DNA of 46,113 bases, from contig JAYWCE010000131.1 in assembly GCA_043780775.1 (NCBI GenBank), positions 1 through 46,113 of the forward strand, in the 5' to 3' direction. Below, in pieces: positions 1-19,641 of the stretch. The notes under the pieces are model-generated. The model did not search any database and was not told the origin of the DNA. It saw nothing but the letters and a program-made list of their open reading frames with translations. The first letter of the stretch is position 1. The number at the start of each line of letters is the position of its first letter. The position numbers and the translations under genes are program-made. Source of the stretch: Candidatus Altimarinota bacterium (GTDB taxonomy: Bacteria; Patescibacteriota; Gracilibacteria; BD1-5; UBA2023).

Positions 1-1
1 G

Positions 2-164
2 AGAGTACTCCTGGCCAGTTCTCGACACAGTGACTGGTGGCGAGGGCTCCACCTGGGAGCTCACCGATGATGAGATTCGAGAGCTTGTATCGGCTTGCGT
101 ACATCCCAGCTGGGAGTCATGCAGATCCTGCACCGATGATGATTGTGTCGTAGACTTGAGACAT
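2..164 (-). CDS. trxB: Thioredoxin-disulfide reductase, N-terminal 54 codons only (gene runs off the window edge)
   Basis: ATG at 164 (minus). MSQVYDTIIIGAGSA[TGA]LPAGMYASRYKLSNLIIGELPGGALATSHCVENWPG. This is the FAD GxGxxG fold, with its third Gly encoded by the TGA at 117..119, plus the TrxB-typical VENWPG motif. Confidence 0.8.
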
Positions 165-215
165 AGAAATTAGGATAAAAAATAATGAGAATGAGTCTCA
201 TTATATGAAAAAGAG

Positions 216-242
216 AAAAAAGACAAGTTTTTTGTCTTTTTT
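216..242 (-). terminator. Rho-independent terminator-like hairpin downstream of the bPH-like gene (A/T-flanked, potentially bidirectional)
   Basis: AAAAAAGACAA-gtttt-TTGTCTTTTTT: an 11-bp stem, 5-nt loop and a T-rich tail on the minus strand. Lies between the bPH gene stop (284) and the trxB start (164). Confidence 0.55.
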
Positions 243-283
243 CTTTCCAAGATGGCTTTATAATGGTCGATATGACAACTCTA

Positions 284-832
284 CTATAGAGTTGGTGTTT
301 TTGCTGGGACATTGTGATGGGCTCGATACTCGCTGATGATTGTATTGATACGATTTCCATTCTCTACGGGATTCGGAGCATAGCTGATTATCATATCTGA
401 GTTCTCACTCGCCGTATGAATATGTATATGTCCATAGTGGAGAATTGTTTGCAGTATTCCATTAACTTCAGCATTAACCTCTTGGACTCGGTCCAGACCA
501 CACTCACTCACTCTCCTTGAGAGTGATGAAATTTGATCAATACCAATGATCCGTTGATCAGTGATAATAAGGAGGTCGAGCTCATTGTTGATCCATGATA
601 AGAGAATAAATGTGAGAAATAGCATCCAGTATACGCTCAATCAGCCCCAGAATATCGCAGTACCAAATATTGTAATGAGAGTCACATTCATTGTTAGAAC
701 AATGAATGTGGTTACTATGAGCATCAATAGATATCCTATTTTGAATACAAAAACGATCCAATGACGATGAAGTAACATAAGGAGATGTTCACCTGCTCGT
801 ATTTGCGATGGGATTTTTAGGTTTTCGAACAT
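284..832 (-). CDS. Membrane protein with bacterial PH-like (bPH_2 / YdbS-YdbT-like) domain
   Basis: 183-codon frame, open only if the TGA at 638..640 is read (it joins track ORFs 641..832 and 284..640); real stop is TAG. GEHLLMLLHRHW, then two hydrophobic helices, then ITDQRIIGIDQ...GILQTILHYGHIHIHTA. This is the layout of bPH_2 membrane-flanked domain proteins. Family call is from motif memory only. Confidence 0.55.
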
Positions 833-1368
833 GTGATATGGGGTGGTTTGAAGTATATAGGAGAGATACGATTCTCTATTTGTTTGACGGCAAATAGACG
901 AGTTATATTGACTCTATCCTCTCTGTATTGTATGGATTTTGTATCTTCTGTCGAGATCATATCTGAGAATATCCCTTCATAGGCTCATATTGGAAGGAGC
1001 TCCTTCGCTATGCTGATAACTGAGTCACCCTGTCTGATGAGATATTCTCGTGGATTGGCCTCGATGATTGGTAGGTTCTCACTCGTGATGAGATCAAAAA
1101 AATGACACGACTTCACGATGATAGCTCTTGTATAGGTGAGACTATTGATCGAGAGTGTGACAACTCGCATGAGTGTGAATGGACCTGGCCCCGTGACGCA
1201 CCAGATCTCATCGATCCCATATTCATCGACAATATCGACAACTATCCGTGGAAATGTCGACGCCGTGTCGAGATTTTTAGCGAGAGTTTTTGTGATAGTT
1301 TGTTCTCAATCAAAAATTAGAAAGTTGATCTCAGGAGTGAGTGGATTGATATAGAGGATGGATGACAT
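817..1368 (-). CDS. tsaB: tRNA threonylcarbamoyladenosine (t6A) biosynthesis protein TsaB/YeaZ-like
   Basis: ATG at 1368. ...IDEIWCVTGPGPFTLMRVVTLSINSL matches the TsaB GPG(S/P)FTG(L)R motif. One internal TGA. The standard-code stop (TGA, 985..987) is read through to TAA at 817..819, adding 56 residues. Overlaps the next gene start by 16 nt. Confidence 0.7.
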
Positions 1369-1377
1369 AATTTTTAT

Positions 1378-2892
1378 TTAGCTACCACGATAGGAGAGTG
1401 CCTCGAGAATATGGCGAACTTCGACAGTTGGCGAACTATCAATATCGGCGATGGTACGGGCAACGCGGAGTATACGATAATATACTCGAGTCGATAGCTT
1501 TAGCTTTTCTGTCGATGATATGGCGATCTTGATTCCATCTTGGCTGATATCTGCGAGCTGCTCGATCTCGACATTCGACATCTCAGCATTGGAGTGGATG
1601 CGTTTTCCTGCGAATCTGGTATGTTGCATTTCTTTGGCTTTCATGACTCTCTCCTTGAGCTCTCGACTCGTTTGTCCAGATCGTTTTTCTCAGAGTTCAC
1701 CTGTCTTGACCCGTGGCACCTGGATGAATATATCGACACGATCGAGGATGGGCCCAGAGAGACGAGATCGATATTTGTCGATCGCCATTGGCGAACAAAC
1801 ACACGGCTTCTCAGGATCACCCATATACCCACAAGGACATGGATTCATCGCACCTACGAGGGAAAAACGAGCTGGATATCGACAGGATTGATTGACACGG
1901 TTGATCGTGATCTCGCCATCTTCGAGAGGCTGGCGAAGTGTTTCGAGTATAGATTTGCTGAATTCGAGGAACTCATCGAGAAATAGTACTCCCTTGTGTG
2001 CGAGTGATATCTCACCAGGTCTCGCCTCTCTACCACCACCGATGATCGATGCCTCACTCGCTGTATGGTGGATCACTCGGAATGGACGATCGACAATGAG
2101 TGGGAGATCCCGAGTCAGGAGCCCTGCTACGGAATATATTTTCGACAGTTCGATCTGTTCCTCGAGTTCCATATCTGGGAGGATTCCTGCCATGGCTTTT
2201 GCTAGCATTGTTTTACCACTTCCTGGTGGTCACTGCATCAAGATATTGTGTCCGCCAGCAGCAGCGATGAGGAGGGCTCGCTTCGCATGTTCCTGTCCGA
2301 TGATGTCTGAGAAGTCGGGTGAATAGATTCATTTCTCATTTTCTACAGGGTCTGGTCGGACTACTCATGCTGGGATAGGGGTATCTCCAGTTAGGATATC
2401 GACTGCATCGGCGAGACAGGCAATGCCAATCACATCGATATTAGGGATCACTGATGCCTCGAGGGTGTTATCGATGGGGAGGAATATTCGCTTCATTCAT
2501 AGTTCTCTCGCGAGTATCGCTGCTGGGAGGGCTCACTGGATCGGTCTCACGAGTCCATCGAGAGCGAGCTCCCCGAGAAAGAGCGATTCTAAAACTATAT
2601 CTGTCCGAAAATCTATATCCTTGCCCAATATACCGAGGGCAATCGGAAGATCATAGATGGGTCACTTCTTCCTCAGATCAGCTGGTGCGAGGTTCACCGT
2701 GATACGGGCCCCAGCCGGGAAGCTATATCCAGAATTCTTCACCGCACTGCGTACTCGCTCTCGACTCTCCTGTATTGCTGCATCACCGAGTCCGACGACC
2801 GTGAACTGTCCCATCCCTGTGATGACATCAACCTCGACCTCTACGAGATGACCAGATATGCCGTAGATGGATGAGGAGAAGAGTTTTTGCAT
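1378..2892 (-). CDS. comM: Mg-chelatase-like AAA+ ATPase ComM/YifB (competence-associated)
   Basis: 505 codons with 7 in-frame TGA. N-terminal Lon-like/ChlI domain ([29 protein letters not shown]). Walker A [TGA]PPGSGKT, with the TGA at 2230..2232 on the minus strand. Walker [25 protein letters not shown] zinc-ribbon-like motif. C-terminal [14 protein letters not shown]. Ends in TAA. Confidence 0.9.
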
Positions 2893-3043
2893 AGTGTACG
2901 AGTTAGGATTTCCAGAGCATTGTAGATATCCAACCATGAAATGCAAGTGACTCCTCGGATTTTCATTTTCTTTTGCACGATTTTGTTCTGTTGTAAAGCA
3001 AAAAGTTGGGTTTTTTTTTGTGAAATGCACTGTATCTGCTAAT

Positions 3044-6028
3044 ATGGGCAGTATGAACAGATTCTTCCTCAGTATCGTTGCGATATTCACTACATTCCAG
3101 CCTGTTCTCGCGATCAGTGTGAGAACAGCTACTCGCTCAGAAAAGGCGACTCCATCACTCTGGTCTACGCTCTGGGAGAGTTTCATGTATATTGCTGAGA
3201 ATATCGTCAATATCCTCCTCGCGGTCATCATCATCTGGATTTGTATCCGACTGATGCGACTCACCTATGAGGTGATGATGACTCCCCGTATGCGATATAT
3301 GAAGGTGACCCTTCCTCGTGCCGACTCCAAGCTGGATAAGGAGCAAGATACTAAAAAAGACTTCAAAGAGAAGATCGGTATCATGACGCTCTTCTATAAG
3401 AGTGTTCACAAGATATCGACGATCAGTGCGTGGAATACGATCCTCAACTTCATCTTCGCTCATGCGAAGATCTCCCTTGAGATGATCTACGCCAATGGTC
3501 AGGTTCATTTTTATCTGGCGGCGTATCAGGAGCATATGACGCTGATCACGCAACAGGTGACCTCGAACTATCCCGATGCTGAGGTAAAACTGATCGCGAA
3601 AGCCGATCTCCCAGAAATCAAGCCACGATGATATGCGCTCGAGGCTGCGTCTATAAGCAAACGCAATGATGATATCTATCCACTCAAGACCTACAAGTAC
3701 TTCGAGGATGATCCACTCTCGTCATTTACCAACAACTTCGGTTCACTCAAAAAAACCGATGTTGCAGCCATCCAGATAGTGATGAAGCCACTCGGGCACA
3801 GTTGGAATCGCAAGGCTAAGAAGGCGGCCGGCCTCGTCGCGAAGGGAGAATACAAAAAAGGACTCAAGAATGGATTTTTTATGAGTGCTATTGGATTTCT
3901 CCTCACGCCGATTTCTTGGTTTTTCTCTCGATTTATCGCCAATGAGGAAACCGCATCGAACGCACCAGGGGCGAGTAGTGGTGACTCGTACAAGATATTC
4001 AATCAGGCAGAGACTGAGGCACAAAAGATGGTGGGGGAATCGGCTGGACAACCAGGATTCGAGGCATCGATCCGCATATTGGTTTCATCCGATACCCGTG
4101 AGTCGGCTCATCAGGGGCTCCAGTCCCTCGTGGCTGCGACCTCTATTTTTACTGATGAATACAATAATCAGCTCGACAATCCGCAGATGATAGAGGATAT
4201 CTTGCGTATCCTATTCACGCCGCTTCGTTATTTTGCATTTGGGTATCGCCTCATCGGGATTTTCCAGAAGATCTCTCGATTCTCCTCTGATGAGATGTCG
4301 ACGATATTCCATTTCCCTGATATCAAGTATAACAAGTCCCCGATCATCGCGTGGCTCGACTACAAGATGCTCTCGATCCCACAGAATCTGAAGTTCCCAA
4401 AAATCCCACTCATCCTCAAGGACTATAAGCGGGATGCGTCGGGCTCCATTTTCACCTCTGATGGATCGCTCTTGCGGGTAGATAAAAATAAAAACCTCTA
4501 TCGAGATGAGAACAAGAATCTCCAACTCACGGGTGGTATGCCTATCTCTGTATTCTCAGAGGGAGCCGATATGGGCAAGCCGGTCGATGCGGGCAAGACC
4601 CCTGTACAGATCGATGCTCAACGAATGCTCGGGGGATTTCCTCTCTATAAAGAGGCAGTTTTGATGGGATGGAATGAATATCGCAATATGAAGACGCCGA
4701 TATATTTTGATCGCAAGGATCGCGGACGACATCACTATATCATCGGTAAGTCAGGAGGATGAAAGTCAGTACTCATCGGATACCTGGCTCGTCAGGATCT
4801 CTGGAATGGGGATGGACTCTGTGTGATCGATCCGCATGGGGATCTTGTTGAGGATATCCTCGCCTTCACGCCCAAGGAACGGGCTCAAGATATGATCATA
4901 TTCGATCCATCAGACTACGAGCGACCACTCGGACTCAATATGCTTGACCTCATCGCGACCGAACCAGCACTGCAGGCAATAGAAAAAGATCGAGCGGCAC
5001 TCGATGCCACCTCGATATTCATCAAGATGTATGGGGATGAGATATTCGGTCCTCGAATCCAACATTATTTCCGCAATGGATGTCTCACGCTCATGGATGA
5101 TTCGGAGGATGGTGGTACACTCATCGATGTACCACGACTCTTTGTGGATGAAGCATTTATGAAATATAAAGTCTCAAAAATCAAAAATGTGATGGTAAGA
5201 GCGTTCTGGGAACATGAGTACGCTCAGACTGGAGATCGTGAGAAGCAGGAGATGATACCATTTTTCTCTGCGAAATTCGGACCATTCATCACCAATACGA
5301 CGATGCGAAACATCATCGGTCAGACGAAGTCAGCATTTAACCTGCGGAAGGTGATGGACGATCAGAAGGTACTCATGGTAAATCTCTCCAAGGGAAAAAT
5401 CGGAGATCTCAATGCTCAGCTTCTCGGTTTGATAATGGTTTCCAAGATCAATATGGCGGCGATGAGTCGAGCGGATATGCCGGAGGAGCTCCGCAAGGAC
5501 TTTTATCTCTATGTAGATGAGTTCCAGAACTTTGCAACGGATACATTCGGGGAGATCCTCTCCGAGGCTCGCAAGTATCGACTCGCACTCATCATGGCCC
5601 ATCAGTTCATCGCCCAGATCGGTGGCAATGGAGCCAAAAAATGAGATAAACCGTCGATCAAGGATGCAGTATTCGGGAATGCGGGGACGATCATGTCGTT
5701 CAAGGTTGGAGCGGATGATGCAGAGTATCTGGAAAAAGAATACGCACCGCTCCTCTCGCAACAGGATATCATCGGTATCGCGAACTTCACCACCTACTGC
5801 AAGCTCAACATCGACAATGCGACCACCAGGCCATTCGATATGAAAACGCTCTGGGACAATACCTATAAGAATGCTGAGGTCTCAAAGATCATCAAGGAAT
5901 ACTCTCGAAAAATGTATGGGCGTAAAAAAGAATATGTTGATATGGAACTCGAGGCTCGCATGGGGATAGTCCGTGAAGAAGCAGACTCAATAGTTCCAAT
6001 CACTGATACCAATAAATCAACTCAATAA
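3044..6028 (+). CDS. Type IV coupling protein-like ATPase (VirD4/TraD/TraG family, DUF87/HerA-like P-loop) with long N-terminal membrane-associated region
   Basis: One frame of 994 aa joins track ORFs 3020.., 3779.., 4823.. and 5693.. through TGAs at 3629, 4760 and 5642. N-terminal hydrophobic segments. [11 protein letters not shown][TGA]KS is Walker A GxxGx[11 protein letters not shown]. Walker [29 protein letters not shown] is a TraD/TraG-type C-terminal motif. Start could be GTG 3020, ATG 3044 or ATG 3053. Confidence 0.7.
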
Positions 6029-6039
6029 TTCCCATTATT

Positions 6040-7248
6040 ATGCTTCACCAAATCCTCCCCATTATTGTTTCACTTCTTGTTATTGTGGATGGCTTTATTC
6101 TTTTTTGATTTTGAGAATATGGATTTATGAGTGACTATGTAAATTCAAATACGATTCTTGCCTCGATTCTGATTATTATTCAATTTCCAATACTTTATAC
6201 TATCCTGTATAAGGCGTATATCGGCCCCATTCAGCTATTAACAAGGGATATTGCTCGTTTTATGACGGGTATCCAAGAGGAGCCACAAATACAACCAAAT
6301 GCATGGAGCGGAGGAATGAATCAGGTTATTATATTTTTTATTAAATCACTTCAGATTCTACGAGTATTCAAACAAGAACTCCGTGATGGTCGCAAGCTCC
6401 GATCTGAGGTTGAGATCGCGAGTGAGATCCAGAAGCAGACACTTGATTACCAGAATATTATAGTACCAGGACTCACCATCGCTATGGCGACAACTCCAGC
6501 ATCAGAGGTTGGTGGAGACTCGCTCGATATTATCCCTGGTCGTGATAATAATCACTATATCTATATTGGTGATGTCACTGGACATGGGGTACCATCAGGA
6601 TTCGTCATGATGATGGTCAATGCTCTGGTATCTGCATTCTCCCTCTCTGAATCCAATGGCGCAAACATCCTTGCACAGACAAATCTGATTCTCAAACCTC
6701 GTATCAAACAGAATATGATGATGACGGCAGTGATGCTCCGTTGGGATGCTACAGCCAAAAAAATGTACTATACAGGTGCAGGACATGAATTTCTCCTCGT
6801 ATATAAGACTAAGGAAAATAAGGTTTATAAAGTTAAAAGTGGTGGTGTTGCACTTGGTATGGTTAAAGATTCTACTAAAATTCTCAAAGAACAACAGATT
6901 GCTTTTGATCCCGGAGATATCATCGTACTCTATACTGATGGTATCAGTGAGGCAAGATATCGCTCTGAACAGACAGGTAGACTCTTTGGTGTTGATCATA
7001 TTATAGATTCGCTCATGTCTATAAATATCAAAAATCCAGAAAATATATTTCGCCAACTTACTATCGATCTCTCTGCATGGATGGGGTATAAACATAAACA
7101 GTATGATGATATCTCTCTCGCTGTTGTGGGATATAATAGTGATTGACAAGAAGCACAAACTCTCCTCGATATCTATAAGCATATAGATAGCACCAATATA
7201 ACTGAATGGAACTGGTGACTCAAAAAAATAGAACAATCTGTAACATAA
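6040..7248 (+). CDS. Membrane-anchored PP2C-type (SpoIIE/RsbU-like) serine phosphatase
   Basis: GGDSLDIIP...HYIYIGDVTGHGVPSGFVMMMVNALV...IIVLYTDGISEA are the SpoIIE/PP2C metal-binding motifs. Hydrophobic N-terminus. The standard-code stop TGA at 7144..7146 is read through to TAA at 7246..7248 (+34 aa). ATG 6040 adds a hydrophobic helix through two TGAs; alternative start is ATG 6127. Confidence 0.8.
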
Positions 7249-7260
7249 CATATACCACCC

Positions 7261-9210
7261 ATGTCTCTCCCTACTCTCACAGAACTCATCACCAAAAACT
7301 ATACCTGAGATGTTGAATGACTCGAATCACTCACTCCAGTATCTTTTTCTGGATCTCATAATACCGTTATATCGCCAACTTCGACACCTTCGCCAAATCT
7401 ATCAGTATCACCGAGTACTGCTGTATCAGTGCCATCATATATCGATGCTGGAGATCGCAAGCTGACGCGAGAAGAGGCGATGGAACTCAAGGATACTGAG
7501 AGGGAATACAATGAGTCACTGGCATTCATCAAGGATGCGATTGCTCCTGCGATGATGCGGATTGACCCAACCAAGCTCCAAATCGGAGATACCTATGTTC
7601 GGACAATATTCACCTATGCCTATCCTGATGTGCTCGAGGGGAATTGGCTCTCACCGCTCATCAACTGGGATGTGAAGTTTGATATCTCTATGTATATCTA
7701 TCCAGTTGATTCAGCTCGTGTGATGAAGTTTCTCCGTAAGCGACTCACTCAACTCGGATCACAGCGAGCTATGAATAATGGCAAATGACTCATCGGAGAT
7801 CCCCATCTCGATGCTCAGATCCAAGATGTTGAAGAACTCCAGCAATATCTCACGCGTGGTCAGGAGAAGTATTTTCACTTCTCACTCTATATCACGACCT
7901 ATGCAGAGAGTGAAGATGAGATGAAAAAACTGACGAATATGCTCGATATGATGCTCGCAGGCCGCAATATCCTCACAAAGCAAACATTTCTCAGGGCAGA
8001 GCAAGGATTCATTGCGACGGGTCCATTTGCTCGTGATGAAGTCAATGTGTTCCGCAATATCTCAACAAAGGGTCTCTCTACTACATTTCCATTTAGCTCC
8101 AACTCTCTCTCTCAGGATGATGGGATATTCTATGGTATAAATACTCATAATAAGTCACTCATCATATTCGACCGATTCCGTTCTGAGAACGCCAATATGT
8201 GTGTATTTGCCAAGTCAGGATGATGAAAATCGTTCGCCGTGAAACTCGAGATCCTCAGGGCCCTCATGATGGGGACAGATGTCATCGTCCTCGATCCAGA
8301 GAATGAGTACAAAGCACTCGTAGATACGGTCTGAGGTACGTATCTCAATATTTCCCTGAATTCCAATGAGAAGATCAATCCGTTCGATCTCCCACGTTCA
8401 CTCAAAGATAGTGAAACCCATATTGGGGATCTTCTCCGCTGAGCTATCGTGAATATGATCGGACTCCTCAGGCTCATGCTCGGTATCATCACTCCGAATG
8501 AAGAAGCACTCCTCGAGAAGGCGATCATCACGACCTACTCACTCAAGGGCATCACGATGGAGGATGACTCTATCGATGGCAAAGAGATACCACTCCTGAA
8601 GGATCTCTACTCGGTTCTCGAAACGATGGATGGAGCTGTTTGACTCGTAAATCGACTCGAGAAGTATATATTCGGAGTGTTTTCTGGAGTATTCTCTCGA
8701 CCGACGAATGTCGACCTCAAGTGATGACTCGTCGTCTTCTCTGTACGAGACCTCGATGATATTCTCCGCCCGATCGCTATGTATATCCTCCTTACCTACG
8801 TGTGGAATGTAGCGAGATCGAGTGAGAAGAAGCGATTCCTCGTCGTCGATGAGGCATGGAATATCATGCAATATGAGGACTCAGCGAAATTTCTTTTTGG
8901 TCTTGTAAAAAGAGCTCGAAAATATGGACTCGGGGTCACGACGATCACCCAGGATGTCGAGGACTTCATGGGATCATCATATGGCAAGGCGATCGTGACT
9001 AACTCATCGATCCAACTCCTTCTCAAGCAGTCACCTGCATCCATCGATGTCCTGCAGAACGTATTCAAACTCACCGAACAAGAGAAATATATCCTCCTGA
9101 ATGCCTCGGTTGGTACAGGACTCTTCTTCGCGGGAGGTGAACATGTGGGTATCGAAATACTCTCATCCTATTTCGAAGAGAAAATCATTACCACCAAACC
9201 AAATGTATAA
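7261..9210 (+). CDS. VirB4/TrbE/CagE-like type IV secretion ATPase
   Basis: 649 aa assembled from 5 track ORFs through 10 in-frame TGAs. Walker A CVFAKSG[TGA][TGA]KS = GxxGGGKS (TGA doublet at 8221..8226). VIVLDPENEY...INPFDL. Walker B RFLVVDEAWNIM. RKYGLGVTTITQDVEDF. Ends in TAA. Confidence 0.8.
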
Positions 9211-10108
9211 TCCTACTCAATCACATAGGGGCTCTGCCCTTATCGTCGGGCTCATTATCGTCGTGTTACTGACGATCTTGACGACCAGTTTTCTCGAGAA
9301 AATCCTGAATCTTGGGAAGACGAGTGGTGGTATCGGTAACTCTGCTCAGTCCTATTATCTCGCTACAGGACTCATCGAGGAACAACTGATGGATGGCCTG
9401 ATGACCAGAGCAGAACCATGGAAGATACCTACAAAAATAGAATGAACTGCTGCTACATGACGGACACTCACAGCATATACGGGTGGCACGATGATGCCTG
9501 AACAGTGAGCATGAGGACTTCCATGAAAATGAAATAGCTCATTTGACTCTAACTGGAATATTATCGGTATAGGTGAACCAGTTCAGATCGTTATTCCTGC
9601 TGGAATTATTGATTGGAGTACTGTGATTTTTCATTTTAGAGTTCCTAGTATCCTAGGTGCAGTTAGCAATACTGGGAGTTCTAGTAGCTCAGGAGTTATC
9701 CTTTGGACTTTTGGATATTCATGAGCATCACTCTACGCAAGTGGAGAAACAGAGATTTTTCAATGAATCCATATCACAAACAATACACCGCTTCCTACAC
9801 TTACTAGTAAAAATGGACTTACAAATACTGGAGTATCGATGCAATTTTGAAACTTTTATAGTGCGTATGGATCAAATTGTGCCTGATTTCAATGTACCCT
9901 GAAGTTATCAATGATACGCTCATTTGTGACAGATTTATGACAATCATTCCCATTTCTTGAATACCAGATTAGTTTTCCTGTAACAATACCGAGTCAATAT
10001 ATGATCATTGACTCGTCAGCCTATGTGCTCGGATACCTCCGCTCTCGCCAGGTGCGTATACCACAGATTACAACCAACACTGCTACTGACTTCGCTATTC
10101 TCCAATAA
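9203..10108 (+). CDS. PilX-like / pseudopilin-type protein (N-terminal hydrophobic pilin-like helix)
   Basis: 301-codon frame, open only under code 25 (11 in-frame TGA). MYNPTQSHRGSALIVGLIIVVLLTILTTSF...AQSYYLATGLIEEQL resembles the PilX_N motif (QRG-aL-hydrophobic helix ... A-yyhAEaGle). ATG overlaps the VirB4 stop by 8 nt. Stop TAA at 10106..10108. Confidence 0.5.
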
Positions 10109-11139
10109 TGATCTCTCTAGTTATCTCTCATCCTGCTGATGCTGGACAACGGCTCGACCGATTTGTCCGCAAATATCTCCCTGGTGCTCCACTCGGTGGT
10201 ATTTTCAAGATGCTACGGACTGGCAAGATCAAGGTAAATACAAAACGAAAAGATCAGACCTATAAATTGGAACTCTGAGATGAGGTATCGTTCTGGCTCA
10301 CGGATATCGAGATGGAGGGATTCGTGGCTGATATCAAATGAAAGAGTGATAGTGTCACAATGGAAACCCGAGAAAAACAAAAAGAGATAGTTGAGCTCGA
10401 TATCCTCTATGAGGATGAGTATCTGATGGTGGTGAACAAACCCGCTGGAATCAATGTCCATGCTGGAGATCATAAGACGAAGGAATCCAATATCATCGAT
10501 CAGGTGCAAGACTATCTCCAAGGACGATATGACAGTCTCACATTCCGCCCTGCTCTCGTGCATAGGATCGATCGTGATACGAGTGGTTGTCTCCTCATTG
10601 CCAAGGATAAGTCAGTACTCGAAACGCTATTGACCGAGCTCCAGGCCCATGATATGGAGAAGGTCTATCACACGATCGTGCTCGGTATCCCTACCAAGCG
10701 ACAGGATACGATCCGAGCCCGACTCCTGCGGATCGACAATGCCAAAAATGAGGCAAAAGTCCGAGTCGATGGGGCAGGACAGAGTGCCATAACTCATTAT
10801 ACTGTACTCCAGACATTCATTGCTCATCAGTCCTTCTCTCTCCTCGAGTGTCGTATCGAGACGGGCCGCACACACCAGATCCGTGTCCATATGGCGTATA
10901 TCGGACATCCAGTCCTCGCTGATCGGGCATATGGTGACAAGAGTATCAACTCATATATCCGCCGTGATCTGGGTATCACTCGTCAGCTCCTCCATGCTCA
11001 GTCTCTGACCTTTGTGCACCCTCGAACTCATAAAAAACTCATGATCCAGGCACCATATCCGCCCGATTTCCTGAGTATTCTCGGTTCTCCTAAAAAAGAT
11101 TTGCAACAAATGGGCTCTCCTGGTATACTAGACACATAA
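10108..11139 (+). CDS. rluD: RluA-family 23S rRNA pseudouridine synthase with N-terminal S4 domain (RluD-like)
   Basis: S4-like N-terminus (GQRLDRFVRKYLPGAPLGGIFKMLRTGKIKVN...L[TGA]DEV). Catalytic HRIDRDTSG. ...ETGRTHQIRVHMAYIGHPVLAD. 2 in-frame TGA. ATG shares one base with the preceding TAA (TAATG). Confidence 0.85.
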
Positions 11140-11152
11140 TAACTCATCATCT

Positions 11153-11638
11153 ATGGACTGGAAAAAACTCACAGAAACAATGACACCATATATCTCCAAG
11201 ATGGATCCGTATCTCGACCGAGCAAAACAATATGGAAAAAAGGCTGCAGAATTCACAGAAGAACAGATACAGATGACACCTCTTTTTATCAAAACACAAG
11301 CTGAGTACGATACGCTCATCACTGAGAAGCGAGTTATACTCATTGCCTATGATGAGACGCAGCCTATAGCTCAGGAGATCCGACTCCTCTCTCTTCTCTG
11401 GTTGACTCGAGCATTCATGGATACAGCTCGACTCCGGTATGTCTCACTCGTCGAGTCGCGAGATCTTGCGACTCATCTGGGACTCATGAGTCCACTCGAT
11501 ATGCGAGTTATATTCCAGTGAGAAGAGACGTTTCACTCTACTGATATCACGGCAATCAAGCAGTGGTGGCAAGCTCCAGTATACATAAAAATAGAACCAA
11601 AAGACCAACCGATACTGGACCCACTCCAATCACTCTAG
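11153..11638 (+). CDS. Hypothetical protein, possibly thioredoxin-fold without CxxC
   Basis: 161 aa; TGA at 11519..11521 read through to TAG at 11636..11638. ...RVILIAYDE...DMRVIFQ[TGA]EETFH...IKQWW loosely resembles the thioredoxin strand / G-E / helix layout, but no redox cysteines are present. Weak call. Confidence 0.4.
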
Positions 11639-11665
11639 TCTCATAACTAACTAATATTCTCTACC

Positions 11666-11872
11666 ATGTTCAACGCCCTCGACATCCTCTATATGGTCCT
11701 CGCGATCATCCTGCTCCCGATTGGCACACTTATCTCGATGATCCTCTATAGAGTCTACAAGACGATGGATCGTATCGAGCGGATTCTCGGTTTCGCTGAT
11801 CGTGTTGTTGGCTATGCATCAGAGTTTGAGAAGATTCCATTGATGATTATACAGAAATTTATGGGGAAATAA
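11666..11872 (+). CDS. Small hypothetical membrane protein (68 aa, one TM helix)
   Basis: ATG..TAA ORF in the same direction as its neighbours. N-terminal hydrophobic helix ILYMVLAIILLPIGTLISMILY. No recognisable family. Confidence 0.4.
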   Translation: MFNALDILYMVLAIILLPIGTLISMILYRVYKTMDRIERILGFADRVVGYASEFEKIPLMIIQKFMGK

Positions 11873-11880
11873 TTTTTCAT

Positions 11881-12261
11881 ATGATTGCATTAATCAACAA
11901 ACAACCAGATATAAAAATATACATTTCAGAAGCACAAGTCTGATCTCTTTTGACTTGAGATACTATCACAGGCATGTCATGGTCTCATATACATAAAGTT
12001 GCCTCAGAGCTTTCATTAAAAATAAACACAACTATAAAAGATCCAACTCGAAATCTTGAATGGACAGAAATTGAAATATCTTCTGATAATGGACAAGAAA
12101 TACGCAAAGAATGAGCAATACTGTGACTGCGGTTCGGAGGAGCACCCAAACTCAGTATCGTTGTACGAGAGAGAATATCGGAACTCAATATTTGAAAGGA
12201 TGATAAAGATCAATTACAGTGGTGATTAGAGAGCTTAGAAAGCGCATTTCAAAATGACTAA
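11881..12261 (+). CDS. Hypothetical protein (126 aa, visible only under code 25)
   Basis: ATG at 11881; 6 in-frame TGA; TAA at 12259..12261. Fills the gap between co-directional genes, whereas the standard-code ORFs here (11985..12188-, 12016..12213-) are antisense to the operon. No family recognised. Confidence 0.4.
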
Positions 12262-12267
12262 CTATTT

Positions 12268-13458
12268 ATGTATTCGCTTCGTGTTCTTTTTTTCTCACTT
12301 CCACTCTACTTCTCTCATGTATTCTCACCACTTGGTCTGACTATAGGAGAGAGTTATTCGTTCGAGCGATACAAGGTATATTTCTTCCTGATCCTACTCT
12401 TCATTGCATGTATAGAGTGACTGATACGTTATCCATGTCGTATTTGGGATATCGTACGCAAATATGCTCATACTATTGCTCTCTTGCTCGTTATTCCCAT
12501 TGTATCGGCACTCTATTTTAACTGATCTATCGATATGGCCTGGTTGCTTGGAAGTTATGAAAAACACCATGGGTACCTCTTCTATAGTAGTATTCTCTGG
12601 CTCATTCTCCTCCTGATAGCGAGCCCGAGAGAGCAACTGAGACAATATATCTCATGGAGCACTGCAAGTGCTATTCTTGTTGCCCTGATCGCTCTCTGAG
12701 AGCATATGGGTGGCATATTCGATATCTATGGGAGATCGGATATGCTATCGATGTATCCTGGGCGATCATCGAGCACGCTCGGCAACCCGAACTATGTAGC
12801 TGGGTACCTACTTCTTTTTATTCCATTGCTTGCTTGGATTCGTTCTCCTGAGAGATGGATCGTACTCGGACTCCTATCACTCGCCATAGTGACAACAGGG
12901 AGCTATATTGCCATTGCTCTACTCGGACTCTATTTACTCTACTCTCTGCTTCGTTATGTTGGTATTTCAGCTGTGATTTCGCTCGTTGGGGTTCTGGTTT
13001 TTGCTCTAGTTGGTAGCTATATCGGGAGCCTCTATCTCGATTCTGAGAAGATACTATCACTCACGAGTCGGTTCGTCCTGATGCGAGAGAGTATTTCTAT
13101 GATGCTGCGAGAGCCGATTTCATTTTTGATCTGATTCGGTCCTGATTCAATAGTATCTCATTTTACTACTGCTCGCTCGCTCATCGTAGATGCCTATTTT
13201 CCTCCTACAGGCCTGATCGATTCCTCTCACAATGTATTTCTCGATATACTATTCCAGTATGGGATATTGCCACTTACTCTACTCGGATATACTCTGGTTA
13301 GTCATTGGAAAAACCAAAAAGAAGAACTGCAGACTGCAATTCTTCTTGGAGGAGCATTTCTCGCACTCAATGTATTCGTATTGGTACATCTCATGGTGTT
13401 GGGTTTGATCGTGATAATATCTGCTGATTACCGTTGACCTCGCAAAAAGTCGATATAG
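12268..13458 (+). CDS. Wzy_C / O-antigen-ligase-like polytopic membrane protein (possible protein or cell-wall glycan ligase/polymerase)
   Basis: 396 aa, 5 in-frame TGA, many hydrophobic helices. SSSTLGNPNYVAGYLL and SSHNVFLDILFQYGILPL match the conserved GNPN-hA and HN-hL-h--E-G motifs of the Wzy_C family. TAG at 13456..13458. Confidence 0.6.
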
Positions 13459-16400
13459 TTGCGTAGGGTAGCCTGCTCGAGTGATATGTATGTGTGATAT
13501 TTCCCTGTGTTTCATCTTACTTGCCTCTTTTGTTGTTCCATCGAACGCAAGATAACAGCATACTCTATTTTCCTTGTTTCGATACTATTTTTGTCAGATC
13601 GGATTTGCATGATGAGTGGGAGAATCTGCTGATCAAAAATTGACTCAGAAGAGAGACTCAGATCTATATTTTTTAAAAACTTGGTAATCGATGATGTAGT
13701 AAGTCGAGCTGGAATGAGTACCGGTACCTGTAGCTGTTGTATGGTTACTCAGGTTTTTGCTGGTACCCCTAGAGTCAAGCTAGCTGTGACGGGACTAAGA
13801 AAGGATACACTACTATTTCCTCCTCAGCCACCACCTGGTCCACTCGATGACCCTCATGATGTAGGAGGTATGACAATTGGCACTAGCGGTGCCCCTACAG
13901 CAAAAAGTGAGAAGTGATCTGTCGTGAATGTACAGGTTTCGCCTGTTACGATACAGATAGCAATCTGAGTAAATGGAGTCGATGAATCAGGTGATCGATA
14001 GACAGGAAGTGTAGATCCATTCGTCCCACTGACCCGTATCGAGATCGTAGCGAGTCCTCCAGAGAGTATGAGAGAAGTAGTCTCATTACCGATCATATAG
14101 ATCGATTGGACTCTTGTACTCGTTGCTCCTAGTGTGATCCCTGTTGCTGATGAAATGAAGATCGGTGACTGGATGATCCCATCCCATGCACCAGAGCTCG
14201 TGATCGTGAGTCATCAGAGAGGTATCGTAGCTGTAGCTCGACTCGCACCGCTCTCTGTGAGGATGATCGTCTGAACTCCAGTACCATAGGTCACACCGCT
14301 CATAGTACTCCCAGAGAGATAGACTGATCCAGATGATGATACATTGCCCGTCCCCGTCTGTGGGATGAGACGAGGAATACGGAAGGAGTAGGTAGGAGAC
14401 TCTGGAGACGAAAAGAGTCGTCCATGAGATTGCATCCTGAAATAGTATGTCGTATCTGGTGTAAGATGAGTGAACTCAAATTGATTAGCACCAATTCCAT
14501 CTTGTTGGAGATAGTATCATTGAGTCTGAGATATATCCCCCAGTCATCCCATACACATAGCAAATCAATACATATGTCATCTTGAGGTGTATTGGTCAAG
14601 TGGGGTACTTATACTACACCCTAGTTCAATAGCTCTCCGAGCATACTGGGCCAATACCCCAGTTTCAGTGATAATATTGCTATTACTGCCAGTATCTGTG
14701 CTTGCTATTTCTCCTATGCTACTGAGGAGTATAGCATAGATCTCACCATGAGTTGCAACACTACTGGGACGGAATGTACTTGTTGTTGTCGTTATTATAC
14801 CAGCTTCAGCGAGAGCCTCGATATAGCCACAATTATCTCAAAGATTGGATCTTACGTCAGCAAATATATTTCATTGACATCATGTGGGAGTATATCATCA
14901 TATTTTTGCTGCGATCATGGCAAGTTCTGCCCGAGTGATAGTGTTTTCGAGGAGGTATCAGTTCTCCGTCGCTTGTACAGAGATGATTCCATTGGCTGCG
15001 AGCGTCTGTGCCGCTCAGAGGTATCCTGATGCTCATTGGAAATCAGCATTCTTTGAGATCGAGAGATATTGTGAGGCATCCATATTGGCAGGATTTGTTT
15101 TGACCTTGATCTTGACTCCAGATTCACCTGAAAGAGTGAGTTTATCGAGAGATATAGTAGGATGTTCGAGGGCTTTGAGTATTCCTATGATATTGAGTCG
15201 TTTACCTCCATATATCTGGCTTATAAGTTGAGGCTTATCGTCAGCTCCATAGAGGATCGCATTCTTGATATCCTGCACACTCGCTGTCGGTGAATAGCTC
15301 CATGCGAGAGCCGCAGCACCAGCGACATGTGGTGAAGCCATGGAGGTGCCATCATAGCTATCATAGCCACCTGAAATAGACCGATCTATCTGGATATCTT
15401 TTACAAAACATCCATAGTTTGGTATTCCACTTTCTGTAGTATCTACACTATCTGTGACCCATTTGAGTCTGATATCAAATGATCCTGTAGCATTATAGAG
15501 ATCTGTGTTGGCGGTGACACGATATTGTGCGATAGCTCCAGTGTGTCCATCGATATTGAGCCATCGACCCGATGGCTCATAGTAGTTGAATCATTCATTG
15601 ATCCAATCCACTCGACTATAGAGACCTCCGTTGTTACTGAGGAGTATATCAATCTGATCATCTGTAGAGGGTGTATCACACCAAGTTGTGATGAGTACCT
15701 TAGCGACATCTCGATTGGGGTTGGCGATAGTTTTCTCGATATATGATGACTCTCATGATACATACGGCGTACGCACATCCGCCCAGAGCACAGAAGATAT
15801 ATCCATCACTTCACCTGATACGACAGCATGGGGTCGTGTGGTCCAGGTATTTGGACTGGATCAAGCTTTCCTCGTCCATCCATTGGCATAACTGATGAGT
15901 TCTGGGGCACCTACAATACTCCTAATAGGGACACTACTATAGATATTGACTCCTGGTGCTGCGATCTGGACTGATTTTGTCCCATAGTTAGAGAATGATG
16001 CGAGGTTATCATTTTGATCAGTAGCTCCTACAGAGATGACATTCTGCAGAGCAGGGATGATGTCTTCTCATGAGAGTACAGCTCGCTCTCTATCGATAAT
16101 AGTTTCTCATGATACGACCGTATCACTTCCGAATCCTGCAGGGAATGATTTATATGTACCATCACTATTCATACCGCTATTACCTGCTGCTGCCACGAAA
16201 AGTCCAGGAAAATCTTGTATAGCCCCATACATGAGATAGTCAAAATCTGACTTTGTATGTGTCGATCTCATGATACCGAGACTTGCATTGATAACTCTGG
16301 CTCCATTTTTGGCAGCAAAATTGATACCACGGATGATATCGGAGGTTGTACCTCCATATGGACTGAGTACCTTTACTGCCATGATCTGTACATTGAGTGC

Positions 16401-17501
16401 AACACCTGTTACACCATCACTATTGCTCACTCCTCCGATAGTACCAGCAACATGTGTCCCATGTCTCATATCATCCATTGGATCGAGATCATTGTTTGTG
16501 AAGTCATACCCATGGATACATCCTCCGAGGGTTGCCCCAGTATCTGAGAGACAGTTGGCACCATCCCACATATGTGGTGCGAGATCAGGATGACGATATG
16601 CGACACCCGTATCGAGTACCGCTACGATCACTCCAGATCCGATCTTGTTCCCCGCATAGGTGATCGCCTCAGGATAGTCGATATCGGCATCAGGAGTACC
16701 AGTGATACCATTGACAGATTGTCCTTGATTATCCAGAGCCCAGAGTTGAGGAAATCCAGAATTGACAGTTGCTTGTGTCTGATAGACAAAGTTTCGTTGT
16801 ACATGTTCAACTCGAGGATCTGTTTTGAGTTCTTCGATCTTGTCATCGATAGCTTGCTCGAGTACTGGATCTACGGAACCAGTATGAACAAAAGAATCTG
16901 CAATACTCATTGATGAGACCATATCGATGGTAGCAGGATTGTCGATCTCCATAACGGCGATATTTTGCTCACTGATCGTCTCAGTCGTCTTGAGATCATG
17001 TGTATTTTCAACCTGATCGACCTGATATTGTCCAATATATCCATCAATATCTGTCTTGAACTGTACGAGGATCTGTGCCTCAGGATGGGTATCTGTCGGG
17101 TGTGAGGACATCTTCAGAGATGGATCCGAGAGGTCCAGTTCACTCTCTCGATCATTGATCGATCCAGTAGTAGTGATGCTCTCTGTATCTATGGGAGGAG
17201 TTATTGAAGAGATGATATTCTCTAGTATCGTAGTGCCACTACTAGTGGCACTATAACCAGAGCTTGTGATTGATCCTGTGTCTGTCGTTACATCTTCACT
17301 TCTCATGGAGCCGTCTTTCGAGGGAAGATGGCTCGTAGTACCAGAGTCCGTGATAGCTACTGGTAGAATCTCTGTGATCACTACTGGCACATCGATGTGG
17401 GGAATATCCTCTGCGAAGATGATCTGTGATGGAACGAGGATAGTAGAGACAAATGCTGTGAGTAGGATCTCAGTTGTTAGGATATGATAGATATTTGGCA
17501 T
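13428..17501 (-). CDS. Secreted subtilisin-like serine protease (peptidase S8) with SLH-like repeats, FN3-like module and C-terminal extension (1357 aa)
   Basis: Signal-like N-terminus. Catalytic triad motifs VIVAVLDTGV (Asp), HGTHVAGTIGG (His) and GTSMASPHVAGAAALAWS (Ser). Then ...ITRAELAMIAAKI.. / ..FADV...GYIEALAEAGII...THGEIYAIL, which are SLH-like. FEFTHLTPDTTYYFRMQS is FN3-like. A Gly run is partly encoded by TGA. 23 in-frame TGA, all after codon 464. Frame checked codon by codon on the mirror copy 28614..32687. Stop is TAA. Confidence 0.8.
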
Positions 17502-17509
17502 GGGGGGGG
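17502..17509 (-). repeat. C8 homopolymer (G8 on the plus strand) abutting the S8 protease start codon
   Basis: catGGGGGGGGt on the plus strand; on the coding strand it reads ...attaCCCCCCCCATGcca. A G/C homopolymer of this length stands out in AT-rich sequence. Confidence 0.9.
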
Positions 17510-17562
17510 TAATATGTAGATATATAGTCTTATCCTGCCATATTTATTCACTTTATACAATA

Positions 17563-17594
17563 AAAATCACTTGACTATTAGATCAAGTGATTTT
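17563..17594 (-). terminator. Rho-independent terminator downstream of the sigma-r4/HARE-HTH gene
   Basis: AAAATCACTTGA (17563..17574) pairs with TCAAGTGATTTT (17583..17594): a 12-bp stem and 8-nt loop. On the minus strand the hairpin is followed by TTTTTATT. It sits 17 nt past the stop codon at 17611. Confidence 0.7.
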
Positions 17595-17610
17595 ACGGAT
17601 AGTATGATTC

Positions 17611-18651: not shown

Positions 18652-18736
18652 ATTGAGTGAATTAATTGGATACTTTTTCGATTCCACCGAGAGCTATTAC
18701 TTGACTAATAATATAGTTTTTCACACAAAGTCAAGT

Positions 18737-19249
18737 TTAAATTGGGAGGCTCATATTCTTTTTATTTTTTTCATCATCAGTAAGTATTCAACGATATTCG
18801 AGGAGTTCATCATGAGTTTGATGGTCTATATAATATATATCTGTATTGGTAGCCTTGTTTGACTGAGAAAAAAAATGGGCAGAAATAAGAATACAAATCA
18901 CGGATGAGAAGGCTATCTTGTAGCCTATTCCTAGTGTCGCTCAGTGGGCAGCTATTTGTGTATTATATATAGTATTGATAATGATCAGATTAATAAGCGT
19001 CGAGAGAAGTATGCTCGTAATAAAAACAATGGCTTGAGTATCGGAGAGCCTAAACGGCACAAGCGTCCTTATATATTCTTTTTTAGTATGAGAAAGCAGA
19101 CAAAAAGGAATTATGACCATAGCAGTGACTATGAGATATCCAATATAGAGTGAATATGATGAAAATGCGTAGTATTGTTCAATGGCCCCATCAAGATACG
19201 CTAAACGGAACCATGGAAAGAAAATGGATGCAAAAAGTATACACTCCAT
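18737..19249 (-). CDS. Hypothetical polytopic membrane protein (170 aa)
   Basis: ATG at 19249. Several hydrophobic helices. TGA at 18941..18943 and one further TGA are read through to TAA at 18737..18739. No family recognised. Confidence 0.45.
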
Positions 19250-19549: not shown

Positions 19550-19641
19550 CTCTATTGGCCCTGCTTCATTCGTTCAGAAGCCAAATGCCATAAAGCTTGG
19601 ACGAGCCTTATTTGTTCCACTACTTCTCATTTCTCAGCTCT

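Follow-up and report, generated by a model that had tools for sequence, protein, structure and literature searches.

Does a tightly packed gene cluster that encodes two type IV secretion system (T4SS) ATPases, a phosphatase, a pilin-like protein and a pseudouridine synthase constitute a machine of its own, or one part of a larger system? The cluster lies in the window analysed here, a stretch of 46,113 nucleotides from a Gracilibacteria genome (contig JAYWCE010000131.1). An initial annotation had proposed an orphan, minimal type-IV-like machine in which a pilin-type protein is coupled to VirB4. Here, we argue that the region is probably the cytoplasmic-membrane ATPase module of a chromosomal T4SS without a relaxase: the Gracilibacteria form of the Patescibacteria system, which derives from monoderm MPF-FATA conjugation machinery.

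Genetic code, assembly and gene order

Table 11 breaks the region into fragments, and reading TGA as a sense codon gives long open reading frames. At conserved VirB4 columns, TGA codons of the window align with Gly in 26/26, 26/26 and 25/26 of the standard-code homologues and never with Trp. This identifies code 25 (TGA = Gly) and bears out the proposed table-25 translation. Positions 2..46113 form a perfect palindrome, with 0 mismatches against their own reverse complement (x maps to 46115-x), which is probably an assembly artefact and leaves only ~23 kb of unique sequence.

Table 1 Features of the window, with coordinates, strand and supporting evidence
Feature	Coordinates	Strand	Evidence
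ComM/YifB Mg-chelatase-like ATPase	1378..2892	-	Mg_chelatase E 5e-92; divergent from D4-like gene
994-aa membrane-anchored DUF8128 + VirD4/TraG-type ATPase (D4-like)	3044..6028	+	Pfam DUF87, motifs, hydrophobic helices
402-aa membrane-tethered SpoIIE/PP2C (PPM) phosphatase	6040..7248	+	SpoIIE E 3.5e-38, 131.9 bits
649-aa VirB4, monoderm MPF-FATA CD1110 type	7261..9210	+	NF045971
P301, 301-aa prepilin-like protein, uncharacterised Gracilibacteria family	9203..10108	+	N-terminus, AF2 model of homologue
RluA-family (RluC/RluD-like, S4 domain) pseudouridine synthase, 343 aa	10108..11139	+	TIGR00005 244 bits, cut-off 193
g161, 161-aa protein, family-less	11153..11638	+	ORF call; 13-nt gap after rluA
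sigma70_r4/HARE-HTH gene	17611..18687	-	behind ~210-aa membrane-protein gene
~210-aa polytopic membrane protein, no family	18737..19369	-	conserved divergent partner of prepilin gene
400-aa N_methyl prepilin-type protein (…NRG|FTILEL…)	19642..20844	+	N_methyl E 1e-6, 28.4 bits, cut-off 21.2
Mirror of six-gene cluster	34477..43071	-	exact copy, window-wide palindrome (0 mismatches)
Mirror of five-gene locus	34976..43071	-	exact copy, window-wide palindrome

Re-deriving the open reading frames and junctions reproduced the annotated layout exactly: five same-direction genes within 3044-11139, intergenic gaps of 11 and 12 nt, an 8-nt overlap of virB4 and the P301 gene (ATGTATAA, 9203..9210) and a 1-nt overlap of the P301 gene and rluA (TAATG). 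A sixth co-directional gene follows, g161, with which the transcription unit probably ends; its product had no Pfam match in a profile search and its position is kept in three relatives (L002, L003 and L084). The packing had been taken to imply co-transcription and translational coupling. However, other same-strand neighbours in the window are spaced by -16, +9 and -29 nt, and because tight packing is normal in this genome it does not by itself define the five genes as a unit; what stands is that the virB4/P301 overlap would permit coupling.

To the left, the divergent ComM(-)|D4(+) arrangement is kept in the relatives' loci L002-6, L008, L013, L022, L026 and L083-85, and comM is the conserved border of the module. 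The neighbourhood is housekeeping and origin-proximal (comM, rpmH-rnpA-yidC), and over 22.8 kb the window runs collinear with both L002 and L003. The module is thus chromosomal, origin-proximal and vertically inherited across Gracilibacteria species.

Two ATPases and a phosphatase between them

VirB4 exceeded the cut-off of the NCBIfam family NF045971 (349.1 versus 325 bits, residues 75-631) and also matched P-loop_TraG and AAA_10 in Pfam, with a variable, Ser/Thr/Pro-rich N-terminal stretch. Its best solved relative in the PDB is the Gram-positive VirB4 4AG5 (E 9e-45), compared with 8e-6 for TrwK. We found 573 VirB4-related loci, and all those kept are from Patescibacteria.

The 994-aa ATPase begins with two hydrophobic, predicted transmembrane helices (8-26 and 50-68), followed by a DUF8128 region (about 70-530) and a P-loop domain with intact Walker A (GKSGGGKS at 568) and Walker B (YLYVDE at 821) motifs. 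Only DUF87 is above its Pfam cut-off, with TrwB_AAD_bind and TraG-D_C slightly under theirs, and homologues that are 60-96% identical carry precomputed PF26449 and PF02534 assignments and the NCBI name T4SS conjugative DNA transfer family protein. A sequence search of the PDB matched TrwB alone (E 4e-5), over a stretch that spans Walker A and B. Like type IV coupling proteins (T4CPs; TrwB of R388, VirD4, TraG/TraD), the protein has an N-terminal membrane anchor, a P-loop domain whose Walker regions align with TrwB, a predicted helical stretch between Walker A and B (in a low-confidence model) and a gene position near virB4. It differs from them in the DUF8128 region of about 460 residues between anchor and ATPase, and the module has no relaxase or relaxosome to couple. 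Because T4CP family cut-offs are missed and the best structural matches are VirB4 proteins, the coupling-protein label is uncertain; the earlier identification of two hallmark T4SS ATPases holds in that both are of T4SS type.

It is conceivable, though unlikely, that the 994-aa protein is instead a second membrane-anchored VirB4-like assembly ATPase, with an N-terminal alpha/beta domain and a C-terminal ATPase, which would give a two-VirB4-type energy centre and leave the main explanation otherwise unchanged. R388 TrwK/VirB4 takes the first 14 places among the Foldseek matches of its AF2 model (E 4e-7 to 5e-5, probability 1.0, 590-1017 aligned columns), with DotL as the best T4CP at only E 0.02, and the missed T4CP cut-offs point the same way. 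Most Patescibacteria T4CP homologues are also distant from virB4, and that of Southlakia is not essential (PMC12102498). Yet TM-scores of these matches are only about 0.2, and confidence in the model is low (mean pLDDT 61, mostly <50 in the ATPase half). Profile-profile comparison aligns the D4-like protein with VirB4 only around Walker A, and DUF8128 with the VirB4 N-terminal domain at E 0.057 and a probability of 1%, while the sole PDB sequence match and the PF02534 scores of homologues favour a coupling protein.

A CD1110-family VirB4 and a membrane-anchored DUF8128 VirD4/TraG-type ATPase are encoded together, with a membrane-tethered, motif-intact PP2C between them. The phosphatase has two N-terminal transmembrane helices, separated by a loop of about 10 residues, and a cytoplasmic catalytic domain in which the GDVTGHG, TDG and DD motifs, predicted to bind metal, are intact. 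Its gene lies directly upstream of virB4 in 38/47 informative Gracilibacteria (code-25) loci and 0.6-4.5 kb off in 4 more, compared with 0/27 loci of other classes (Peregrinibacteria or Saccharibacteria). Neither this arrangement nor the DUF8128 ATPase is mentioned in the text or the available supplements of PMC12102498. No kinase, FHA or STAS partner for the phosphatase is present in the window. Type VI secretion in Pseudomonas aeruginosa is controlled by threonine phosphorylation through PpkA, PppA and Fha1, with a PP2C-family phosphatase encoded in the secretion cluster. The feature in common is the phosphatase gene inside a secretion-system cluster; the present case differs in the secretion system, in having no kinase or FHA gene, in the membrane tether and in that adjacency is the one pointer to a role. 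By analogy with PppA, the PP2C may be a regulator of the T4SS: on the same membrane as the ATPases, it would dephosphorylate a Ser/Thr-phosphorylated component and so gate assembly or activity.

The prepilin-like protein and its neighbours

The basic leader of P301 (128 homologues; 413 representative clusters) has Gly at -1, and its hydrophobic helix, about 20 residues in length, lacks Glu+5; alpha-1 is long, the head is a beta-sandwich and the C terminus carries a conserved ...PQITTNTAxDFAxLQ segment. For a homologue that is 70% identical, the AF2 model (pLDDT 85) is a lollipop of helix 9-62 and a beta domain, without a fold match in the PDB, and P301 itself matched no Pfam or NCBIfam family. 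Matches to PilX_N are weak and occur in 11/59 family members. Minor (pseudo)pilins such as GspK, PilX and ComGG also lack Glu+5. P301 resembles them in its short basic Gly-ended leader and hydrophobic segment, in its long alpha-1 helix and beta-rich head, and in that its gene, in most lineages, immediately follows that of a canonical N_methyl prepilin. It differs in that no pilin matches it significantly in sequence or fold, in its novel beta-sandwich head and in lying outside a recognisable pilus-assembly operon.

Direct coupling of this protein to VirB4, as first annotated, does not hold across relatives. The two genes adjoin in only 10/15 places examined, all in one clade, whereas rluA directly follows the P301 gene in 14/15. 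In the remaining 5/15 an N_methyl prepilin gene immediately precedes the P301 gene and virB4 is not in the vicinity, and the order g297-like(-)|Nmeth(+)-P301(+) was found in L081, L082 and L086-L089. The virB4 gene is present without P301 in L004-6 and L008, four close relatives, and in about 35 other loci; beside virB4, canonical prepilin genes show no enrichment (3/98 neighbours versus 13/633 genes overall). P301 also evolves faster than the module, since it is 70% identical to its L002 counterpart and the ATPases are 92-93% identical.

The N_methyl prepilin gene, which in other Gracilibacteria directly precedes the P301 gene as its partner, is present in the window in a block with the ~210-aa membrane protein and sigma70_r4/HARE-HTH genes that also occurs in L081, L083 and L086-L088. 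A rearrangement in one clade probably placed P301 and rluA behind virB4, at a distance of 9.5 kb from the ancestral prepilin partner. The rluA product is an RluA-family enzyme (PseudoU_synth_2 E 1e-32), and the RluC and RluD equivalog models fall under their cut-offs. It is a housekeeping gene, the usual downstream neighbour of P301 and a passenger of the ATPase module, whose co-transcription with the module would follow only from the compactness of the genome. P301, a prepilin-type, minor-pseudopilin-like protein, is likewise a passenger, although the 8-nt overlap kept in the clade makes translational coupling possible and may reflect a functional link.

Partner genes and rival explanations

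Profile scans of the ~23 kb of unique sequence, which cover the window and not the genome, found no VirB2/3/6/8/9/10/11-like gene and no relaxase, as first annotated. The machine is nevertheless not an orphan in related genomes. In L008, which has the ComM|D4-PP2C-VirB4 arrangement, and in L017, PrgI/VirB3-like and TraC-like/TrsD genes are located 5-7 kb from virB4, and PrgI, TraC-like and VirB2-like T4SS_pilin genes are grouped at a separate locus in L088 and the complete genome CP042461.1. Matches to the TraC-like family number 1277 in Gracilibacteria. The layout agrees with the report that PrgI, TraC-like and VirB2-like pilin genes are not near virB4 in this class (PMC12102498).

A self-contained reduced device, in which VirB4 and a coupling protein energise a P301 fibre or channel replacing VirB2/3/6/8, is accordingly very unlikely. 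It would account for the overlap of the virB4 stop with the P301 start, for a five-gene order that, when compared among relatives as first suggested, is kept within one clade down to 43% P301 identity, and for the lollipop model; large prepilin genes sit between PP2C and virB4 in L038 and L048, and VirB6 homologues are reported to be undetectable in Gracilibacteria (PMC12102498). The separate occurrence of P301 and virB4, the missing prepilin enrichment and the partner genes of relatives all stand against it. Less credible still is an origin in an integrative conjugative or other mobile element, as its remnant or cargo. Conjugative elements have VirB4 and VirD4-type genes as hallmarks, the VirB4 here fits the ICE-type CD1110 family and the D4-like ATPase half matches the phage family phrog_5156, but phage matches are only 22-25% identical, window scans found no relaxase, integrase, repeats or tRNA at the borders, many species share the housekeeping flanks and their proteins diverge in step, and the Patescibacteria VirB4 clade is reported to be monophyletic and class-specific (PMC12102498). 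Least probable of all is anti-phage defence in which HerA/FtsK-type ATPases act with a PP2C as effector or regulator: both ATPases have weak PADLOC matches to mad8, HerA and DndH, but these reach 39-72 bits over the P-loop core only, compared with 349 bits for the VirB4 family, PP2C, P301 and g161 have no PADLOC match, and the locus is universally conserved and slow-evolving, unlike defence islands.

Relaxase-free chromosomal T4SSs in Patescibacteria are already published (PMC10633639, PMC12102498; review PMC12857230), as in Southlakia epibionticum (SEML1_0006-0019). The ATPase module described here shares with them a monoderm MPF-FATA-type VirB4, the origin-proximal chromosomal setting without a relaxase, the partner gene families present in the class and a presumed non-conjugative role in an epibiotic lifestyle; essentiality is shown only in Saccharibacteria. 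In Saccharibacteria a TraC-like gene and pilin arrays are directly upstream of virB4, whereas in most Gracilibacteria, and in this window, they are not found there, and PP2C is fixed upstream of virB4, often preceded by the DUF8128 ATPase. This Gracilibacteria-specific PP2C placement may be new, as may the modelled structural similarity of the DUF8128 ATPase to full-length VirB4. The two ATPases would form the energy centre, with PrgI/VirB3-like, TraC-like/TrsD and VirB2-like pilin proteins, encoded elsewhere in the genome, as partners. The non-conjugative character first proposed fits the chromosomal housekeeping setting and the absence of a relaxase from the window, and instead of conjugating DNA the machine would exchange protein or other cargo with a host cell.

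Genetic code, gene layout and the palindromic contig

Translated with table 11, the region breaks up into short ORFs, and reading TGA as a sense codon yields long ones. At conserved VirB4 columns the TGA codons of the window face glycine in 26/26, 26/26 and 25/26 standard-code homologues, one of them being a Walker A glycine, and tryptophan never stands opposite them. On this comparison the genetic code is assigned as 25 (TGA = Gly), not 4. The initial annotation had described five tightly packed co-directional genes, and all of its coordinates, including both gaps and both overlaps, were reproduced exactly (see table). It had also taken the packing to imply co-transcription. The packing is compatible with this but is by itself no mark of functional unity, given that tight spacing is usual in this genome, where other same-strand pairs of the window are spaced by -16, +9 and -29 nt. 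A consensus promoter and terminator scan showed no excess over shuffled sequence and hence was uninformative, and Rfam and tRNA scans of the unique half of the window returned nothing.

Read 5' to 3', positions 2..46113 of the window are identical on the two strands (0 mismatches), with no loop at a centre between 23057 and 23058; this leaves approximately 23 kb of unique sequence, each feature being present twice. The two closest relatives among the related loci and genomes compared (L001-L090), L002 and L003, are collinear with window 1..22851, and neither folds back there. The likeliest origin of a 23-kb inverted repeat so perfect and without a loop is a chimera formed during amplification or assembly, and we flag the contig as a probably artificial palindrome. 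Absences from the window therefore apply to 23 kb and not to a genome.

The other genes of the window include ComM, a Wzy-like protein, a subtilase with an SLH domain, rpmH, rnpA and yidC, and the likes of ComM, rpmH, rnpA and yidC confirm a chromosomal, origin-proximal setting, which is also described for other classes in PMC12102498. The subtilase (Peptidase_S8) is inserted in the window with respect to L002 and L003, which are otherwise collinear with it. The rpmH product carries the L34 domain at residues 6-42 and a C-terminal extension of ~40 aa ending in ...TERFRG, also found in L002 and L083; being conserved at the protein level in relatives, the extension therefore appears to be translated. 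A short ORF downstream of the sixth gene encodes a small single-pass membrane protein with no family match; L008 encodes a similar protein of 79 aa.

Features of the window and insertions between the PP2C gene and virB4 at related loci
Feature	Sequence	Position	Strand	Remark
ComM	window	1378..2892	-	left border
Gene 1, D4-like ATPase	window	3044..6028	+	ORF, 994 aa
Gene 2, PP2C	window	6040..7248	+	ORF, 402 aa; 11-nt gap before
Gene 3, virB4	window	7261..9210	+	ORF; 12-nt gap before
Gene 4, P301	window	9203..10108	+	ORF, 301 aa; 8-nt overlap ATGTATAA with gene 3
Gene 5, rluA	window	10108..11139	+	ORF; 1-nt overlap TAATG with gene 4
Sixth co-directional gene	window	11153..11638	+	13 nt after gene 5
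Small membrane protein	window	11666..11872	+	ORF, 68 aa
Subtilase with SLH	window	13428..17501	-	1357 aa
Long ORF	window	17500..18708	+	antisense artefact of TGA-as-sense; the real gene is the next row
sigma70_r4 + HARE-HTH protein	window	17611..18687	-	
Prepilin block	window	17611..20844		
N_methyl prepilin-type gene	window	19642..20844	+	
rpmH	window	20919..21176	+	
Six tandem paralogous genes	L040	5738..9678	-	~200 aa each
Prepilin-type protein	L038	8397..9797		466 aa
Prepilin-type protein	L048	1109..3886		925 aa

Two ATPases and a membrane-tethered phosphatase

Over residues 75-631 the virB4 product scores 349.1 bits on NF045971 (CD1110 family; cut-off 325), and on TIGR00929 (VirB4_CagE) it reaches 115 bits, under the cut-off of that model. 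Among solved structures the closest is 4AG5, a Gram-positive VirB4 domain (E 9e-45), and both Walker A (AKSGGGKS at ~317-324, with two of its glycines encoded by TGA) and Walker B (FLVVDE at 526) are intact. Judged by its sequence, the protein is a VirB4 ATPase of the monoderm CD1110 / MPF-FATA type. A VirB4 query of species-representative genomes gave 573 related loci, and all window proteins were mapped in code 25 onto the best 80 of them. These best 80 of 573 are all from Patescibacteria and graded by class, with VirB4 identities of 93-61% in Gracilibacteria, ~55% in Peregrinibacteria and ~50% in Saccharibacteria.

The D4-like protein consists of two N-terminal hydrophobic helices (8-26 and 50-68), which supply the N-terminal transmembrane anchor typical of a T4CP, an unassigned region of ~460 residues and a P-loop domain. 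In a Pfam scan DUF87 alone was above its cut-off, with TrwB_AAD_bind (18.7 vs 20.5) and TraG-D_C (18.8 vs 22) falling short and the TraD NCBIfam models far under. Homologues at 60-96% identity have DUF8128 (PF26449) and T4SS-DNA_transf (PF02534) among their precomputed domains and are named T4SS conjugative DNA transfer family proteins by NCBI, and the one solved structure matched by sequence in the PDB is TrwB (E 4e-5), a coupling protein. Structure models were made from close database homologues, P0121 (96% identical) for the D4-like protein and P0002 (70% identical) for P301, the 301-aa gene 4 product. The AlphaFold model of P0121 has a mean pLDDT of 61, mostly 70-90 in the N-terminal region and poor in the ATPase half, where the helices that the model places between Walker A and B (638-769) fall below 50. 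The top 14 Foldseek matches of this model are full-length TrwK/VirB4 proteins (E 4e-7 to 5e-5, with TM-scores of only ~0.2), and the best coupling-protein match is DotL (E 0.02). Profile-profile comparison aligned the D4-like protein and VirB4 around Walker A only, and hhalign of DUF8128 against the VirB4 N-terminal domain gave no significant match, so the VirB4-like fold suggested by Foldseek stays a hint from a predicted model. Given these mixed sequence, Foldseek and hhalign results, we label the protein a DUF8128 plus VirD4/TraG-type ATPase, which may be a coupling protein proper or else a second ATPase resembling VirB4. Neither the window nor the flanking regions of syntenic relatives hold a relaxase for it to serve, and DUF8128 is not mentioned in the literature searched.

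The PP2C gene product scores 131.9 bits against SpoIIE (PF07228, cut-off 25) and retains its metal-binding motifs (GDVTGHG at 181, TDG at 303 and DD at 360); we assign it to the SpoIIE-family PPM/PP2C phosphatases. Its two N-terminal transmembrane helices are connected by a loop of only ~10 residues, and the phosphatase is therefore membrane-tethered without an external sensor. Among the best 80 of 573 loci, the gene lies immediately 5' of virB4 in 38 of the 47 informative Gracilibacteria loci and near virB4 in 0/27 loci from other classes; it is found 0.6-4.5 kb upstream of virB4 in 4 further Gracilibacteria loci. The arrangement of a ComM gene on the opposite strand followed by D4, PP2C and VirB4 occurs in about a dozen species, and L011 and L019 have D4 with radA and rpmE inserted ahead of PP2C. 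The terms SpoIIE, PP2C and phosphatase are absent from the text and supplements searched of PMC12102498, the figures of which could still show the family.

Some relatives carry additional genes between PP2C and virB4. All six tandem paralogues in L040 possess an anchor at the N-terminus and share a conserved ...GAVMAFN..CP(S/T)GW motif at the C-terminus, and the insertions in L038 and L048, which belong to two separate lineages, encode canonical prepilin-type proteins (...FTLVELIVV...).

P301 and its gene neighbourhood

In the window, the N-terminus of P301 (...SHRG^SALIVGLIIVVLLTIL) combines a short basic leader, a glycine and then ~20 hydrophobic residues, the single hydrophobic segment lying at 13-31. 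Distant members read ...KKG^FS(I/L)... once TGA is translated as glycine, and the glycine before the helix is encoded by GGC in the window and by TGA in relatives. Position +5 is Val or Leu rather than Glu, and there is no N_methyl (PF07963) match in P301. Minor pilins of the GspK, PilX and ComGG type also lack Glu+5, and the P301 signal is prepilin-type, of the minor-pseudopilin kind. Neither Pfam nor NCBIfam matched the window P301, and Pfam found nothing in 10 distant members. The family of ~300-aa proteins comprises 128 close homologues and, by exhaustive profile search, 413 representative clusters, in which named members are solely hypothetical proteins of Gracilibacteria. The model of the 70%-identical member (pLDDT 85) predicts a 54-residue helix (9-62) followed by a beta-sandwich, for which a fold search of the PDB returned no chain at E<=0.001 (TM ~0.15). 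PilX_N (PF14341) does not match the window P301 or any of 10 distant members, and is detected weakly in 11/59 family members (best E 0.0071). The label 'PilX-like' given in the initial annotation is thus fair for the N-terminus, with its leader, glycine and hydrophobic helix, but does not extend to PilX_N membership. Many database members (P0002, P0037 and others) are translated in code 4, so that the glycine at the predicted cleavage site is shown as tryptophan; in code-25 lineages, errors of this kind may conceal pilin signals from profile searches.

P301 is next after virB4 in ten places (L001-3, L007, L013, L022, L026 and L083-85). In L081, L082, L086, L087, L088 and L089 it directly follows an N_methyl prepilin gene with no virB4 nearby. 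There the prepilin gene is paired with a divergently oriented membrane-protein gene, and a sigma70_r4/HARE-HTH gene lies behind. The window retains the same prepilin block 9.5 kb downstream, and the sigma70_r4 + HARE-HTH gene adjoins this block in many Gracilibacteria. RluA is next after P301 in 14/15 places examined. The proposed coupling of a pilin to VirB4 is not supported, given that P301 stands elsewhere with the N_methyl gene, that virB4 occurs without P301 in the close relatives L004-6 and L008, and that canonical prepilin genes are not enriched at virB4 (3/98 neighbours vs 13/633 genes overall). The simplest account is that prepilin-P301-RluA is the older order and that a rearrangement in one clade then put P301-RluA behind virB4. 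P301 also evolves much faster than the ATPases (70% vs 92-93% identity to L002), which would fit a surface-exposed protein. The rluA product matches the RluA-subfamily model TIGR00005 (244 vs cut-off 193) and misses the equivalogs for RluD (NF008385, 154 vs 351) and RluC (198 vs 378); we accordingly replace the earlier name RluD by RluA-subfamily pseudouridine synthase.

Relation to the Patescibacteria T4SS

That the window holds no relaxase or channel genes was correctly noted in the initial annotation as far as the 23 kb of unique sequence go, in which VirB3/PrgI, TrsD/TraC-like, VirB2-like pilin and VirB6 genes are all missing. The further step to an 'orphan', channel-less minimal machine, although attractive, is unsupported and we remove it, given that PrgI, TraC-like and VirB2-like pilin companions occur in relatives (L008, L017, L088 and L090). 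Tracing by tblastn placed PrgI (VirB3-like) and TraC-like (TrsD-type) genes 5-7 kb from virB4 in L008, which shares the ComM, D4, PP2C, VirB4 arrangement, and in L017, and both L088 and the complete Gracilibacteria genome CP042461.1 have a PrgI + TraC-like + T4SS_pilin cluster at a separate locus. The TraC-like protein has 1277 homologues, the top 120 being all at least 65% identical. In Saccharibacteria loci the TraC-like gene lies directly 5' of virB4, with pilin arrays close by, whereas in most Gracilibacteria it is elsewhere. These separate loci agree with PMC12102498, which describes the Patescibacteria T4SS as monophyletic, MPF-FATA-related and relaxase-poor and reports that in Gracilibacteria virB4 lacks any association with homologues of TrsD and VirB3 and VirB6 goes undetected. 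In the one Saccharibacteria species tested, the T4SS is essential for epibiotic growth (PMC10633639); both studies are reviewed in PMC12857230. The module is probably a class-specific variant of this known Patescibacteria T4SS, and of the initial interpretation the T4SS-type, non-conjugative part stands and the orphan, pilin-based part does not.

Mobile and defence readings were rejected. A conjugative element (ICE or plasmid) is at odds with the 23 kb of unique sequence, in which there is no relaxase, oriT, integrase or mobile-element border, and with the housekeeping flanks, which are conserved across species in a window syntenic with the chromosomes of relatives. For a phage or mobile element speaks the match of the D4 ATPase half (residues 538-969) to phage family phrog_5156, of function not known (E 1e-68); in annotated phage genomes this comes down to just 22-25% identity, to hypothetical proteins of the large Bacillus phages G, CP-51 and SP-10. 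Defence-system libraries yielded superfamily-level P-loop matches only.

Taking the protein identities, the membrane anchoring, the conserved gene order and the separate T4SS loci in relatives as established, VirB4 and the DUF8128 ATPase would energise a machine for secretion or uptake at host contact, built with PrgI, TraC-like and VirB2-like proteins. PppA, a phosphatase in type VI secretion, is a model for gating by dephosphorylation, and by analogy the membrane-tethered PP2C may gate this machine. P301 and the N_methyl protein might serve a type IV pilus or pseudopilus, and RluA would be a housekeeping passenger. A bolder combination, in which a VirB4-like two-domain DUF8128 ATPase replaces the classical coupling protein, the virB4-linked tethered PP2C makes this the first phospho-regulated T4SS, and P301 and the N_methyl protein were recruited as a surface fibre (a T4SS/T4P hybrid) in the clade of the window, strikes us as very improbable when taken jointly.

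The DUF8128 ATPase emerges as an uncharacterised, highly conserved partner ATPase that merits follow-up, and the P301 family probably adds a minor pseudopilin whose head fold is new. The linkage of PP2C and virB4 is likewise worth following up: a phosphatase gene that most Gracilibacteria species keep immediately 5' of virB4 offers, on the basis of adjacency only, a testable hypothesis of a switch.
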